From positions 27,263 to 91,262 of IMG/VR virus record IMGVR_UViG_3300011480_000001: 64,000 nt of DNA; one strand, 5' to 3'. Source of the DNA: a virus (Duplodnaviria; Caudoviricetes). Position 1 is the stretch's first letter; every line of letters starts with the position of its first letter. The translations under genes were made by a program, and so were the position numbers. Positions 3,498 through 9,754 of this stretch are shown one piece after another. The notes under the pieces were generated by a model. That model was not told where the DNA came from. It made no database searches and saw only the letters and a program-made list of their open reading frames with translations.

Positions 3498-4235
3498 CTA
3501 CCCCTCATTAAACTTTACCCACTTACTATCTTGACAAGGAATCCAACCTTCCTTAAATTTCTTAAGTATAGTAAAAATTGAACTTCTAGGGACTTCATCA
3601 CAATACAACTCATTATAGAGTTTAGTGAATCTACGCTCACCCAGTTTATCAGAGTTAATCCAAACTTCATAAAATACTTGTGCATTCTTCCAAAGCAATG
3701 TTAGATAAGGTCTTGCAACTACCTTAGAAGTTTCCCAAGGAGCAAGATTCTTATTCCTAGCGGCTTTTGACATATTCTTTCTTGCGGTTTCTGATCTTTT
3801 TGCGCCAAGATTAGCCATACGGGTACGCTCTATTGACTCAGGAGATTGTTTCCTGCCTTTGCTTGCAGCTCCAGTTTTCAGCTTAGCTTCTTCTGTATGC
3901 TTCTTACCGAAGAAAGGATTGCCCGCGCCCTTATTAGCTGTTGAGGCTACTATTCGGGCCTTTTCAAATTCTCTTGAAGTAGTCTTATAGCTATTACTCA
4001 TAATCCAATACGCTCTTTGGTATTGTTTACAAGACTTATTAGACTTCCACAAAAGTTTATGGGCAAGGAAATGTTCCCTCAAAGTGAGTAACACTAGGTT
4101 TTCTTTCTTGTTTGATCCACCCATACTTCTCAAGACAATATGGTGCTTCTCAGTATAAAAATTTAATTTATTCTTGTTCAGACCTCTAGCCTGCCTTGAG
4201 TAAACAAGTTTGTTGTAAAGATCTAAGTAATTCAA
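3498..4235 (-). CDS. Free-standing HNH homing endonuclease with NUMOD3 repeats
   Basis: EKHHIVLRSMGGSN...NLVLLTLREHFLAH HNH core; NPFFGKKHTEEAK, GRKQSPES and GAKRSET NUMOD3-like repeats. Confidence 0.88.
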   Translation of the reverse strand: MNYLDLYNKLVYSRQARGLNKNKLNFYTEKHHIVLRSMGGSNKKENLVLLTLREHFLAHKLLWKSNKSCKQYQRAYWIMSNSYKTTSREFEKARIVASTANKGAGNPFFGKKHTEEAKLKTGAASKGRKQSPESIERTRMANLGAKRSETARKNMSKAARNKNLAPWETSKVVARPYLTLLWKNAQVFYEVWINSDKLGERRFTKLYNELYCDEVPRSSIFTILKKFKEGWIPCQDSKWVKFNEG

Positions 4236-4257: not shown

Positions 4258-5941
4258 CTATTGTCCTGCACGTTGAAATGGGTTATCAAAGCTTAGTTGA
4301 GAACCTTGAAGCCCTGATAGGAAGTTTGGAATGTTAATTTTCTGAGCTAATGTAATAAATGAATCACTTGAGGCGTCCACTTGGTCATCTTTTACTCTTC
4401 TTGTTCCATCAAAACCTTCAAGTTCTGAGAAATAGGTTTCATTCCAAGGGGCCTCAACGTAGTCAATAAGACCTGCTTGAGCAGCAGCAGCAAAAGGCTG
4501 GAACCTTACCACTTTTGATTTATTAGAGGGCCGCATGCGAGCAGCGAAACCTTCACCCAATAGATCCTTAATCATCATCTGACCAGCAGCTTTACCAGCT
4601 TGTCCTGGCTCTTGTGGAATAATAATCTGAGTTTCCGGGGGATCTGATTTAGCAGTCTCAATAATCTTTTGCATTACTTCGCCAAACCTAGCCCTGAATC
4701 TCACCACATCCACGACTACATACCTCTGATCTTTAGTCTTCGCGATAAGAACACCACAGGTCCAATCGGGGTTGGGCAGGTCATCCGACGGAAGAGAACC
4801 AGCTATATCCCAAGCCCTACAGTAAGATATAATATTTAAATCTACAAAGCTTGTAGCCTTACACCACTCTTTTTTGAAGTAACCGCTTGAAGATTCACGA
4901 ACAAGCCAATTGCCGTCTAAAAGCCTGGACTTTTCTACGCCCTTAAGACCCTTTAACCACGCAACGTACTTTGGGTTAATTCGTTGCACGATTGGGTTAT
5001 CGGTTACGTTGGCACTGATAAAAGTGAAAGAAAGAATATCCTCTAAAAGTACCCCATACTCTTCTGCAATCTCTTCAGGAGAATCACCCCAAACAAAGTC
5101 ACCATCTTGGAAAGTAAAATAACGAAGCAGTCCATCCTTAGTTCTGTCTGGCGTACCATCTTCATGCAGATAAGGTTCTACCCATTTACGTAAAAAATGA
5201 TCATAGGAAGGATTGCACGTAATTTTAAGCTTAGGTTGTACTTCGGGGCAGTTTGGGTTACGCATACGAGACATGATATACTGAATCATATGCTGCGTGA
5301 ATTGCGTGCCCTCATCTACATAGTACAAATTTGCCTCAGCGCCTTGCCAGTCTTCATCGGCATCATCGTTTTCGAAGTGCTTCATGTAGATTTCAGCTTT
5401 GGACTTGAAGAAAACAAATTTCTTATCTTTAGCATACCAACGATATTCGTCTGGTTTATATGCTTTAGAAAATATACGCTTGCACTTAGATAGAAGTCCA
5501 CCTGGACCCATAAGCTGTGGAGTTGTACGTCGAGTCATTACCCCAATAAAGTTGGGAATGTCTGTGTATTGAAGGAAGTCAATGGCTCCGATTTCAGATT
5601 TACCGGAGCCTGCTGCCAATACTGTTATGAAGTTCGCTAAACTTCTCTCAAGTTTCCCTGAGTGTCGGACCAACTCTTAATTCAAAAGAATTCTCTCTGT
5701 TTCGGGAATCGCTTGACCCCTACTCTACTCACTTCCACTTACGTGTGTTTTCGATGGCCTCTACGCACTGTCTTTAAACATTGGCACGGGATTACCCTCA
5801 GCATTGCCTGTTAGGGCTTCCCCGTTTAAGAGAGTTTTAAATGGAGGCGCAGATTTCACCACCATATAGTGTTACATCAGCTTGACTTTGGACGTACATC
5901 AACTGGCGTTGACTACAAGGTCCCGGTAAGTCTTGATTCAT
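4258..5941 (-). CDS. terL: Terminase large subunit, spliced: exon 1 5941-5858 and exon 2 5616-4258 (about 480 aa)
   Basis: Exon 1 MNQDLPGPCSQRQLMYVQSQADVTLYGG joins in frame to AAGSGKS, restoring Walker A GGAAGSGKS. YVDEG Walker B, TCNP, RAWDIA and DDQVDA motifs. AAGGGA RBS upstream of 5941. Confidence 0.93.
5617..5857 (-). ncRNA. Group I self-splicing intron (241 nt, no ORF, IA2-like) in terL
   Basis: 5' exon ends in U and the intron ends in G. IGS GCCUCCAU pairs with exon AUGGUGGU, with U.G at the splice site. CUGC can pair with 3' exon GCAG (P10). P AAACGGGGAAGCCCU, Q GGGUAAUCCCG, P7 GGCCA/UGGUC, P3 CUCUCU/AGAGAG, P8 AAUUC/GAAUU, P9 CUCAGG-GAAA-CUUGAG. Confidence 0.93.
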
Positions 5942-6888: not shown

Positions 6889-6963
6889 TGGAGGCAAAGT
6901 TCGGAGTCAAACCGAAGTCACGGCGTTACAAAGGCCGGGTAATGATCACTATACGACAATGCC
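6889..6963 (-). tRNA. Degenerate tRNA-Thr(TGT)
   Basis: Cloverleaf ending in encoded CCA; T-arm TTCGG-TTTGACT-CCGAA; anticodon arm CGGC-CTTTGTAAC-GCCG with a C.C mismatch; two U.U mismatches in the acceptor stem. Confidence 0.65.
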
Positions 6964-7601: not shown

Positions 7602-7895
7602 TTAGCGTGAAGAAGACACTCTAATGAGACCATTATTTTCATACTCAGTTTCGTCGTATTCGTGACTGAATAATTTATAATACACTTCATCAGAAAACTG
7701 TTCAGTTTCAGCTAAGCTGTGTGCAACCATATTAGCTCGACCAACATTAGGAAACTCACCAAGATTTTCGCTAGATGTTGACTGAGACGATTGTGTGTAT
7801 TTCGTCACTACATAACGAGTAACTGGTCTTACTTTATACTCAACCTTGGCGTAAGGCTTTTCTTCTGTTACATTTAAATCTTCAATTTCAATCAT
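7602..7895 (-). CDS. Hypothetical protein
   Basis: 97 aa ORF with GGAG RBS. Confidence 0.7.
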   Translation of the reverse strand: MIEIEDLNVTEEKPYAKVEYKVRPVTRYVVTKYTQSSQSTSSENLGEFPNVGRANMVAHSLAETEQFSDEVYYKLFSHEYDETEYENNGLIRVSSSR

Positions 7896-7992
7896 ATTTA
7901 CTTAACTCCACAGAGTTTTTAAATTTAAAATTACAATCCGCAGATTGTGTTATTAGTTTGTAGTCTTTCCCACTGTCATTTAAAACTTAGGT

Positions 7993-8177
7993 ATTACAGA
8001 GGAAGTCGCACCGTTCTGTTAGCTACGCCCTCAAGGGGACTGGGTCCAGAACATATAGCATTTTAAGCTATATCCGCTTCCAACAGAGAGTGTATTCCTC
8101 TGTCCGTCCAATGACTAATTAAAGTCCAGTGCCGCCTAATACACAACGGTGCTCACTGCTGGTCTTACGTCTGTAAT
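7993..8177 (-). ncRNA. Candidate structured ncRNA (about 185 nt)
   Basis: Nested stems ATTACAGA/TCTGTAAT, GCACCGTT/AACGGTGC, ACTGG/CCAGT, ACAGAG/CTCTGT and ATATAGC/GCTATAT; no ORF. Confidence 0.55.
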
Positions 8178-8180
8178 GTT

Positions 8181-8269
8181 TGGCAACCCGTAGAAGTAAT
8201 GATCTCCGTGACGATCCATCCTCATGTTTTACGTCAAAGGCTTAGAAGACCTCTTGAGGGGTACGGGTT
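8181..8269 (-). ncRNA. Atypical tRNA-like RNA with an Arg(TCT) anticodon loop and no D-arm
   Basis: Acceptor AACCCGTA/TACGGGTT followed by GCCA; arm AGAGGT-CTTCTAA-GCCTTT; 4-bp T-like stem GGAG-ATCATTA-CTTC. Confidence 0.65.
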
Positions 8270-8274
8270 ATATG

Positions 8275-8349
8275 TGGTGGGACCAGCAGAAATTGCATCT
8301 GCATATCTCGTCTTATGAGGACGGTTCATTACTTTTATGATATAGTCCC
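8275..8349 (-). tRNA. tRNA with CAT anticodon (Ile2 or Met)
   Basis: GGGACTA/TGGTCCC acceptor with ACCA; D-arm TCAT/ATGA; anticodon loop CTCATAA; T-arm GCAGA-TGCAATT-TCTGC. Confidence 0.85.
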
Positions 8350-8354
8350 GTAAA

Positions 8355-8764
8355 TTCATTGCACCCTAAAGTCATAAAATCAGGAGTTAAGGAATTACCT
8401 ACATTTCTGTATTCTTTAGGACGACTTTACCAGAATGTGACGTATTCTACTCACTTACCGAAGGTCAAAATAAGCTTTCAAACAGAGCGTCTTCACAGAT
8501 AGCTCATTCTGATTTTTATAATTGCCTTTCGGCCAACAGAATTCCTAGCGTCTGCTAGGCTACGGTGTAATTGGTGTAAACCTACACTATCTCTCACCCT
8601 GTGAATTCGTAGAACTACTAAATCGTATCCGCTCTCGTAGTCGTAGCTCGGATTTAGCATCCCTGTTGGAAGGACTGGTCTACTCGCCAACGTATTACGC
8701 CGCGTATGAACGTAATATCCGTGTTGCTCTTTTAAATTCCCGAAGCCTCTTCGGCTTTCCTGTG
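8355..8764 (-). ncRNA. Candidate large structured ncRNA (about 410 nt)
   Basis: Directly behind a consensus promoter; many hairpins; the only ORF (8493-8771) starts inside the -10 box. Confidence 0.55.
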
Positions 8765-8769
8765 CTGAC

Positions 8770-8797
8770 ATTATACACTATTTATTTATATTGTCAA
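8770..8797 (-). promoter_or_regulatory. Consensus sigma70 promoter for the RNA cluster
   Basis: TTGACA-N16-TATAAT. Confidence 0.85.
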
Positions 8798-9006
8798 CTA
8801 TTTTCGTTATAATCTATCAAATTTAGTGCGTATTCCGTAATATCTCCAAACTGATAGGTCTTTACATCAATATATTCAGAGTTATCTGAAATGAAGATAC
8901 ATGCCGTACACATATCTTCTTCCACGTACATACCTTCAAACTCATCATTGCTTTTATATCGAACCATCCCTGTTAAGGGCGTGTCGCAACATTTACATCT
9001 AGACAT
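8794..9006 (-). CDS. Small zinc-finger protein
   Basis: CKCC...CTAC; 70 aa. Confidence 0.65.
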   Translation of the reverse strand: MSRCKCCDTPLTGMVRYKSNDEFEGMYVEEDMCTACIFISDNSEYIDVKTYQFGDITEYALNLIDYNENS

Positions 9007-9754
9007 TTCTGATAAATCCTATTCCTTTTTCATATTGATTTGGGTCTTTACCAGATTTACTACGATTGCATGTTGGACACAAAAGCTGTAAATTATCAGG
9101 CCAGTGACTTCCACCCTTACACAAAGGCATTATGTGGTCAATATGATAACCTGTGTTATCAAACAAGGCATCACAATAGACACACTGACCTTCTTGATTC
9201 ATGTAAAGGAGTTGAATGTCCGCATTACTAAAATGGCCATCAGCTTCTAATTCACGCTTACGTCTAAGCTGGCTGTAAATCTTAGCCCAAGGTTTGTAAT
9301 TTTCTTTGTTTTCTTTTACACATGCAACGCAAAGTCCTGTCTCAGTAGATCGTTTAGAAAGGTGATTGTTTTTACATGGTAATTTAGTATCATAAAAAGG
9401 CTCATCGAGTTCCTTAGCTATCTCTTTGGTTCTTGGTAAAATATCCAAATCTTCTGAACCAAAGGTGTAGTTCGTCAACAAACCTGTCTTTTCTGTATCT
9501 GAAACTTCTGATAAAGTTTCTCTAATAAACCGCAGAGCTTCTTTTGCTTTCTCTTTCTTGGCAACTCTATTTTCAGCCCGTTCTTCCCATTGGAATGAGT
9601 TTTCAGCTTTATGTTCTTCAAGACATTCACAACATTTGTTTGTAGAAACATACCTATCTGAAATATGACCTTTAATACATGCTTCACCAGTAAAATAGAA
9701 AACTAACCCAAGCTCTTTGGCCTCTTTTCTTGTGATTATTTCCACAATTACCAA
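8999..9754 (-). CDS. HNH endonuclease with two N-terminal Zn-binding repeats
   Basis: CVYC...HIDHIMPLCKGGSHWPDNLQLLCPTCNRSK; duplicated (K)EAKEL...C..(G/N)H.S.R...C..C module. Confidence 0.88.
   Translation of the reverse strand: MVIVEIITRKEAKELGLVFYFTGEACIKGHISDRYVSTNKCCECLEEHKAENSFQWEERAENRVAKKEKAKEALRFIRETLSEVSDTEKTGLLTNYTFGSEDLDILPRTKEIAKELDEPFYDTKLPCKNNHLSKRSTETGLCVACVKENKENYKPWAKIYSQLRRKRELEADGHFSNADIQLLYMNQEGQCVYCDALFDNTGYHIDHIMPLCKGGSHWPDNLQLLCPTCNRSKSGKDPNQYEKGIGFIRNV

Follow-up and report, generated by a model that had tools for sequence, protein, structure and literature searches.

The phage genome segment analysed here carries, within an array of small RNA genes, an element that looks like a tRNA for arginine at its anticodon and like no ordinary tRNA at its core, and it raises the question whether such an RNA is a tRNA in decay, a mimic, or a working tRNA of a different build. 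The segment, hereafter the window, is the final stretch of 64,000 nucleotides in a virus record that spans 91,262 bp and has direct terminal repeats, and its genes include those for terminase, portal protein, an S49 protease and homing endonucleases. The element occupies positions 8181–8269 on the minus strand (read from 8269 to 8181) and comprises 89 nt including an encoded CCA; it is elsewhere counted as 85 nt plus CCA.

Detection and fold of the element

As a prior sequence-only reading had anticipated, the tRNA finders applied pass over the element: ARAGORN made no call for it at its default setting or with -ps85, -mt or -mtmam, and Rfam assigned no family at E ≤ 10 in a 1.3-kb stretch in which the adjacent tRNA scores 50 bits. 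At its default setting, ARAGORN reported no tRNA anywhere in the 64-kb window. When pieces of 1–2 kb were submitted to Rfam, tRNAs were returned at 50.3 and 38.3 bits (the family threshold of RF00005 being 29 bits) along with a group I intron at 33.6 bits; a search with the whole 64-kb window returned nothing in either gathering or E-value mode. Since even the 50-bit tRNA was missed in that search, and since speed filters hide AT-rich atypical RNAs, whole-window Rfam negatives are unreliable here. If the element keeps the dimensions of a tRNA with a different core topology, phage tRNA inventories would prove to be undercounted, since it escapes the standard finders that were tried. The group I intron match (5646–5867, minus strand; below the gathering score) is located at the 5'-end of the gene for the terminase large subunit, and a NUMOD3 endonuclease gene is found at 3498–4235.

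Read from 5' to 3', the element consists of the acceptor strand AACCCGUA (8262–8269), CC, the 5'-strand CCUCA (8255–8259) of a helix that we denote H2, a single A, and an anticodon-like arm (8237–8253) with the 5-bp stem GAGGU/GCCUU and the 7-nt loop CUUCUAA, in which UCU occupies 8244–8246. There follow the 5'-strand UGACG (8232–8236) of a helix H3, a 7-nt linker UAAAACA (8225–8231) that is A-rich in every member of the family described below, the 3'-strand UGAGG of H2 (8220–8224), a loop AUGGAU (8214–8219), the 3'-strand CGUCA of H3 (8209–8213), and a C. The T-arm (8193–8207) combines the 4-bp stem GGAG/CUUC with the loop AUCAUUA, an atypical T-loop, and leads into the 3'-acceptor strand UACGGGUU (8185–8192), which pairs with 8262–8269, and finally into the discriminator G and the encoded CCA (8181–8184), all on the minus strand.

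The encoded CCA, the 8-bp acceptor stem abutting a 4-bp T-stem and the CU-UCU-AA loop that the sequence-only reading had listed are all present on the minus strand. It had also been claimed that the D-arm is missing, and only 8 nt do in fact separate the acceptor stem from the anticodon stem, five of which pair with the variable region; the covariation of H2 in seven sequences agrees with this assignment. The insert reported to follow the anticodon arm exists as well, but spans 29 nt between the anticodon stem and the T-stem (from the UGACG of H3 to the C preceding the T-stem) rather than 26 nt.

The homologue search that had been proposed at the outset yielded six further members in which the fold is kept by compensatory changes. 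These were found by exact-pattern scans with the anticodon-arm core together with a covariance model, and the family now comprises seven distinct sequences: that of the window, those of two viral contigs (L014 and L016), and those of four metagenome contigs (L017, L020, L028 and L031); the metagenome sequence L018 belongs to the same phage as L016 and was not counted as a separate member. The homologues differ from one another at 13–40% of positions, and all of them match the covariance model over their full length (43–110 bits with R1, 72–99 bits with R2), the window element itself scoring 110 bits (R1) and 86 bits (R2). Each genome carries a single copy. Eleven other metagenome pattern matches comprise the core only, some within ORFs, and were rejected both as family members and as tRNAs; a score of 29 bits was reached by L027, but this match is located inside an ORF.

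Other searches returned little. Patterns that were free of, or neutral towards, the anticodon recovered only L016 and chance matches rejected by the covariance model, an exact scan using the 3'-end of the element gave no match, and blastn of positions 7900–8800 against 50,697 GenBank phage records gave zero matches. Representative prokaryote genomes contained just three chance matches, to the core only, and hence no prophage copy. Among relatives identified by TerL (13 loci and five whole genomes), neither blastn nor the covariance model located a copy of the element; the interval from the polA-like gene to terL is a variable one.

The alignment of the seven sequences provides the central evidence for the fold. 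Standard pairs are formed by 96.3% of the stem cells, compared with 37–52% when the partners are slid, and 15 of the 27 pairs exhibit changes on both sides. In the acceptor stem, compensatory changes affect seven of eight pairs and 100% of the cells pair; in H2, they affect all five pairs, with CCUCA/UGAGG of the window being replaced elsewhere by CCCCU/AGGGG, CCACC/GGUGG, CCUCUC/GAGAGG or UCCAC/GUGGA. The T-stem covaries among GGAG, GAGG and AGAG. Four pairs of H3 (UGACG/CGUCA) are invariant and formed in six of the seven members, and the innermost fifth pair is GC, AU, CG or GU; in L017 the helix is weak, with two of its five pairs kept. H3 crosses H2 and was left out of the covariance model. 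RNAalifold arrived at the same nested structure from the model-guided alignment and from a plain MAFFT alignment. Taken together, covariation and the agreement of RNAalifold indicate that both pairings are real, as the sequence-only reading had supposed when it proposed CCUCA/UGAGG and (U)GACG/CGUC(A) as a pseudoknot-like core. The predicted helices H2 and H3 are an H-type pseudoknot that harbors the anticodon hairpin inside its first loop. The CUUCUAA loop is invariant in all seven members, but since the arm itself served as the search pattern, its conservation is subject to ascertainment bias and constitutes no evidence. Alternative cloverleaves were considered and rejected, e.g., with the UCU hairpin taken as the D-arm, or as implied by ARAGORN at -ps80, which called Gly or Stop; these differ from one member to the next and cannot be reconciled with the covariation of H2. 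On the strength of the comparative analysis, we thus have very high confidence that the seven sequences represent a conserved family of tRNA-shaped RNAs with a pseudoknotted core in place of the D-arm.

This pattern leaves the notion of a decaying tRNA-Arg pseudogene, or of a chance fold, barely credible. Single-sequence folding of the element alone does give an unremarkable energy (z = -0.82), and the window T-loop departs from the norm. However, the family does not have the appearance of a normal tRNA-Arg that decays at random: in all seven members, numerous compensatory changes preserve one and the same non-cloverleaf fold, one copy is present per genome, and nothing outside the loop is similar to canonical phage tRNA-Arg(UCU) genes. 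A tRNA fragment of the attP type was rejected as well, given that the 5'- and 3'-acceptor strands covary and the 3'-half is not that of a normal tRNA-Arg.

How closely might the fold approach the shape of a tRNA? As covariation shows, the 8-bp acceptor stem stacked on the 4-bp T-stem gives a standard 12-bp acceptor branch, and a second branch is built from H2 (5 bp) followed by the 5-bp anticodon stem presenting C32-U33-U-C-U-A37-A38. The lengths of these branches (8+4 bp and 5+1+5 layers) are those of a normal tRNA; six members exhibit the 8/4 arrangement, and L028 fits either 9/3 or 7/4. The same covariation shows that, with the D-arm hairpin absent, the partner strand of H2 is supplied by the 29-nt variable region, which also provides the 4–5-bp pseudoknot helix H3. 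H3 begins immediately behind the anticodon stem and leaves 1 nt up to the T-stem, the place of a class II V-arm. The 5'-strand of H2 appears topologically similar to D-stem positions 22–25, with the single A resembling position 26, and since this strand enters the anticodon stem via one nucleotide, the 3'-strand of H2 would correspond to positions 10–13. Finally, the AUGGAU loop appears to resemble G18-G19-A20 of a D-loop, its GG being kept in six of the seven members and the A20-like base being absent in two.

Two covariations of tertiary type bear on the elbow. Canonical T-loops are found in four of the seven members (UUCGAUU, UUCAAAU and UUCAAUU occur elsewhere in the family), and T-loop positions 1 and 5, which correspond to a 54:58-like pair, read U..A in five members but A..U in the other two. 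A G19:C56-like pair, which can be drawn between the third base of the T-loop and the second G of the GG loop, is G:C in six members and A:U in L028, where GA replaces GG along with a C-to-U change in the T-loop. Each of these is a single event, and the two are no more than suggestive of an elbow contact in which the GG loop of the variable region would dock on the T-loop, much as G18 and G19 of the D-loop do in ordinary tRNAs.

The base at position -1 can pair with the discriminator in six of the seven members (UG, UA, UA, AU, UA, GU), as opposed to one of seven for a slid -2:73 control, and because of this pairing capacity the mature 5'-end may be at -1, with a 13-bp rather than a 12-bp branch. 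Such a pair (involving position 8270 in the window) could extend the acceptor stem to nine pairs, as is the case in tRNA-His, and the RNase P site would move accordingly; a preference for U(-1) together with A73 is an alternative explanation. The discriminator varies across the family between G, A and U, and is mostly A.

Genomic setting and processing

A tRNA-CAU gene with CCA (8275–8349, minus strand; body 8278–8349, CCA to 8275; RF00005, 50.3 bits) precedes the element. The 5-nt gap between the two had been noted correctly, but the description of this neighbour as a normal tRNA was generous, since ARAGORN misses it by default and calls it at -ps85 only. The tRNA is unusual in having a D-loop AAAAGUA without GG and the T-loop UGCAAUU. 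A homologous tRNA-CAU (L014 820–894, plus strand; T-loop AGCGUUA) is located beside the element copy in L014, with the order reversed, and the element and the tRNA-CAU genes may travel together.

The RNA array of the window is headed by a sigma70-type promoter (TTGACA-16-TATAAT at 8770–8797, minus strand; 12 of 12 matches) about 500 nt upstream of the element, with no strong terminator between the two. In L014, the element is located directly behind a promoter and ahead of tRNA-CAU; in L017 it follows tRNAs for Tyr, Lys and Leu and a canonical tRNA-Arg(UCU), the last of these 44 nt upstream; and in L031 it is embedded in a cluster of at least eight tRNAs. The tRNA clusters of the window, L014, L017 and L031 thus hold the element on the same strand, which supports its co-transcription with tRNAs. 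We infer that the array would be transcribed from the strong promoter at 8797–8770 as a multi-RNA unit, from which the element would be cut out like the adjacent tRNAs. CCA is encoded in six of the seven members, as it is in most of the adjacent tRNAs, and is missing only in L028; the CCA status of the element hence tracks that of the neighbouring genes, as expected for an RNA matured by the tRNA-processing machinery.

In L028, the element is located 4 nt downstream of a divergent tmRNA gene (5363–5696, minus strand), which scores 47.2 bits with Rfam, just at the threshold, and has no encoded CCA and the T-loop UCGAUGC. This tmRNA may be phage-borne; the contig also encodes a class I ribonucleotide reductase and a DUF1559/N-methyl protein typical of Planctomycetes. 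In the window, an RNA of about 185 nt (7993–8177, minus strand) follows directly after the CCA of the element, and ARAGORN at -ps85 places in it a weak 84-nt 'tRNA-Thr(agt)' (8065–8148). Although this call is probably spurious, a further tRNA-like module may be present in the stretch.

Genes of homing-endonuclease type are found directly upstream of the RNA array both in the window (an HNH gene at 8999–9754, minus strand) and in genome G007 (T5orf172/MUG113 and HNH_3 genes at L037 196–726 and 1386–1973, plus strand), where the element begins within the stop codon of the HNH_3 gene. Such neighbours fit the cassette-like variability of the region. A variable cassette rich in homing endonuclease genes, with uncatalogued RNAs adjoining the element, could also accommodate a structured RNA outside tRNA biology, e.g., a scaffold for array processing, a regulator, or an element of the homing-endonuclease cassette itself, whose likeness to tRNA serves only for its release by RNase P. 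However, the anticodon-loop signature, the T-loop, the elbow candidates and the dimensions of a tRNA are kept across distant phages, and we consider a role of this kind rather improbable.

The tRNA-Arg(UCU) slot and the function of the element

In the nearest relative, L001 (TerL 91% identical), a canonical tRNA-Arg(UCU) ends 1 nt ahead of a segment with homology to window positions 7615–7489; the element of the window belongs to the same array but lies slightly more upstream. In G007, the element heads a region of anti-SD hairpins, as does the canonical tRNA-Arg(UCU) of L001, a correspondence judged visually from hairpins whose pyrimidine-rich loops are of anti-SD type in both sequences, and not by alignment. 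The few tRNA genes detected in G000 and G007 (both complete) and in G001 (62% complete) comprise CAU, Thr(UGU), Trp and Gly; a canonical UCU tRNA was not among them. A set of CAU, Thr(UGU) and Arg(UCU) is typical of phages with few tRNAs (cf. T4). AGA and AGG together account for 40% of the Arg codons of the phage, and the use of AGR is not clearly higher than in relatives without any UCU gene.

The tRNA-Arg(UCU) of L001 (2028–2104, plus strand) has the D-loop AACUGAACA, which is devoid of GG, and the T-loop UUUGAGU, with an elbow of A19:U56 type. The tRNA-Thr of the window (6889–6963) has an elbow of the same type, and the phage group of L001 and the window seems to favour altered elbow pairs.

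The sequence-only reading had offered two functions, a decoy for anticodon nucleases and a non-canonical adaptor. Comparative evidence, that is, the occupation of the tRNA-Arg(UCU) slot, the status of the element as sole UCU gene in complete carriers, and its tRNA dimensions, leans towards an adaptor, and we give an even chance to the proposal that the element is a working, structurally rewired, Arg-accepting adaptor for AGA and AGG. The arginyl-tRNA synthetase of the host would charge it, and AGA and AGG would be decoded in place of the canonical tRNA-Arg(UCU) of the sister phage. A20 and the discriminator are identity elements for E. coli ArgRS. Several features count against an adaptor: the varying discriminator, the loss of the A20-like base in two of the seven members, the weak H3 of L017, the atypical T-loop of the window, and the lack of a phage ArgRS, the carrier phages encoding neither this enzyme nor a CCA-adding enzyme. 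EF-Tu, the ribosome and HisRS of E. coli accept an engineered D-armless tRNA (PMC11551756).

The codon data bear on a related proposal, in which the V-arm-like H3 would turn the element into a substrate of seryl-tRNA synthetase, and hence into a missense or recoding adaptor through which AGA and AGG are read as Ser. In its 8/4 branch and in having H3 at the place of a V-arm, the element resembles allo-tRNAs, which are charged with Ser whatever their anticodon and of which some with a 9/3 branch match AGA/AGG (PMC5389517). Yet at the AGA and AGG positions of conserved proteins, relatives most often have R (66 and 82 cases), followed by K, and S only 0–1 times, which makes a Ser-inserting, allo-tRNA-like role unlikely. 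Moreover, the loop of H3 is tied into the pseudoknot such that there is no free V-arm, and the discriminator is mostly A; all in all, we regard a Ser adaptor as very improbable.

The main rival to the Arg adaptor is a non-decoding tRNA mimic that bears the anticodon arm of tRNA-Arg(UCU), undergoes the processing of a tRNA, and functions as decoy or sponge towards an anticodon nuclease of the host or towards another tRNA-binding defence or modification enzyme. Defences that cleave tRNA are widespread (PMC10264068, PMC13056530, PMC12445682), and the decoy stays alive because in L017 the element coexists with a canonical tRNA-Arg(UCU), which implies that the two are not simply redundant. It is further favoured by (i) the non-canonical core, with the possible -1:73 pair that may give a 13-bp branch, (ii) the finding that anticodon-free and anticodon-neutral scans, which are low-power tests, never revealed a member with another anticodon, and (iii) an RNA ligase domain (PF09414, scoring 62 bits) within an open frame of 328 aa, encoded outside the window at G000:C1:6402-6908 (plus strand), which may be relevant to tRNA repair and hints at tRNA-damage warfare. 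On the other hand, this ligase is absent from G007 and G001, and a decoy needs neither tRNA-like branches (12 bp; about 10–11 layers) nor U33, A37 and an encoded CCA beyond the demands of processing. Furthermore, a real tRNA-Arg(UCU) fills the slot in sister phages, the complete carriers are without any other UCU tRNA, and we know of no defence nuclease that is specific for tRNA-Arg(UCU). A decoy thus appears unlikely, albeit by no means far-fetched.

If the element is instead an Arg adaptor, its unusual core might confer an advantage. Many defences cut the anticodon loop or stem, the variable loop or the 3'-tail of tRNAs, and phage tRNAs act as nuclease-resistant replacements (PMC10264068, PMC11464382, PMC12445682, PMC12851939). 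One may speculate that the core renders the element a poor substrate for tRNA-cleaving defences of the host; nuclease resistance of a rewired tRNA-Arg(UCU) is a matter of conjecture. We tentatively put forward that the element may be a natural, translation-active, non-cloverleaf phage tRNA, in which the pseudoknot replacing the D-arm would allow an Arg(UCU) adaptor to function and at the same time to escape host enzymes that recognise or cut ordinary tRNAs.

Comparison with known tRNA architectures

If the dimensions of a tRNA are kept with a different core topology, the family would represent a new class of structure among tRNAs or tRNA mimics, and it could offer a natural scaffold for the engineering of orthogonal tRNAs. 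Resistance to tRNA-cleaving defences, if present, would represent a new tactic in the arms race over tRNA between phage and host, and even a decoy would be the first one to be defined by covariation. To our knowledge, non-cloverleaf tRNAs are otherwise known from animal mitochondria. In the full-text literature that was covered, with most subscription journals outside its scope, no phage or bacterial tRNA-like RNA of this topology is described, and neither phages nor pseudoknots come up in a review of non-canonical tRNAs.

With canonical tRNAs (RF00005), the element shares (i) a 7-nt loop with U33 and a purine at 37, (ii) a T-arm, (iii) a 12-bp stack, and (iv) a 3'-CCA in six of seven members. 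A canonical cloverleaf was nevertheless rejected, since there is no D-arm hairpin, only 8 nt being available for it with five covarying pairs to the variable region, and since neither RF00005 nor ARAGORN detects the element. Bacterial tRNA-Sec (UCA, 8/5, 6-bp D-stem) was discounted in view of the UCU triplet, the 4-bp T-stem, the absence of a D hairpin and the lack of an RF01852 match. The tRNA-like domain of tmRNA is characterized by G3:U70, a tag frame and the absence of an anticodon arm; the element has such an arm, its 3:70 pair is C-G, G-C or U-A, and there is no tmRNA match. T4 rnaC and rnaD are stable non-tRNA RNAs of 119–139 nt that are co-transcribed and co-processed with tRNAs. Neither of them is known to have an anticodon arm; it is their setting, that of stable RNAs in a phage tRNA cluster, which resembles that of the element.

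Phage replacements for cleaved host tRNAs include the tRNA-Lys of T5, which acts against PARIS (PMC11464382), a tRNA-Thr(UGU) acting against P2-OLD (PMC12445682), and mycobacteriophage tRNAs (PMC10264068). The window phage, with CAU, Thr(UGU) and the UCU gene, has a typical set. Such tRNAs, however, carry point changes in the anticodon loop or stem of a normal cloverleaf, whereas in the element the whole core is rebuilt and resistance is conjectural.

The allo-tRNAs and the (8/4) tRNA-Ser and tRNA-His of bacteria and phages (PMC5389517) have in common with the element the 12-bp branch split 8/4 (possibly 9/3 in L028). Like the element, they occur in phage tRNA clusters, are missed or mis-scored by standard finders, and in some cases have anticodons matching AGA/AGG (PMC5389517). 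The allo-tRNA analogy of the sequence-only reading accordingly holds for the branch but not for the remainder, such as the D hairpin and the free V-arm: allo-tRNAs are nested cloverleaves that occur with many anticodons and have a tRNA-Sec-like D-arm, made up of a long stem and a tetraloop, as well as a long V-arm that is free, whereas the element has been seen with UCU only. The element was rejected as an allo-tRNA even though the branch is 8/4 or 9/3, since a D hairpin has no room and the 17–18-nt loop of H3 pairs with the 5'-region.

D-armless mitochondrial tRNA-Ser(AGY/AGN) (PMC9427863) resembles the element in having no D-arm hairpin and an anticodon that reads AGN, and the engineered D-armless 'mini HisT' (PMC11551756), which can be used by the bacterial translation machinery, likewise has no D-arm hairpin. 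A mitochondrial D-armless tRNA-Ser was rejected as an identity for the element, since the 29-nt variable region of the element forms H2 and H3 and the mitochondrial modes of ARAGORN find nothing. Both of these D-armless RNAs are truncated forms in which the connectors are short and no D-loop contributes to an elbow contact, whereas the element is full-size, natural and phage-borne, with a D-stem-like helix and a GG loop that appear to have been rebuilt from an enlarged variable region.
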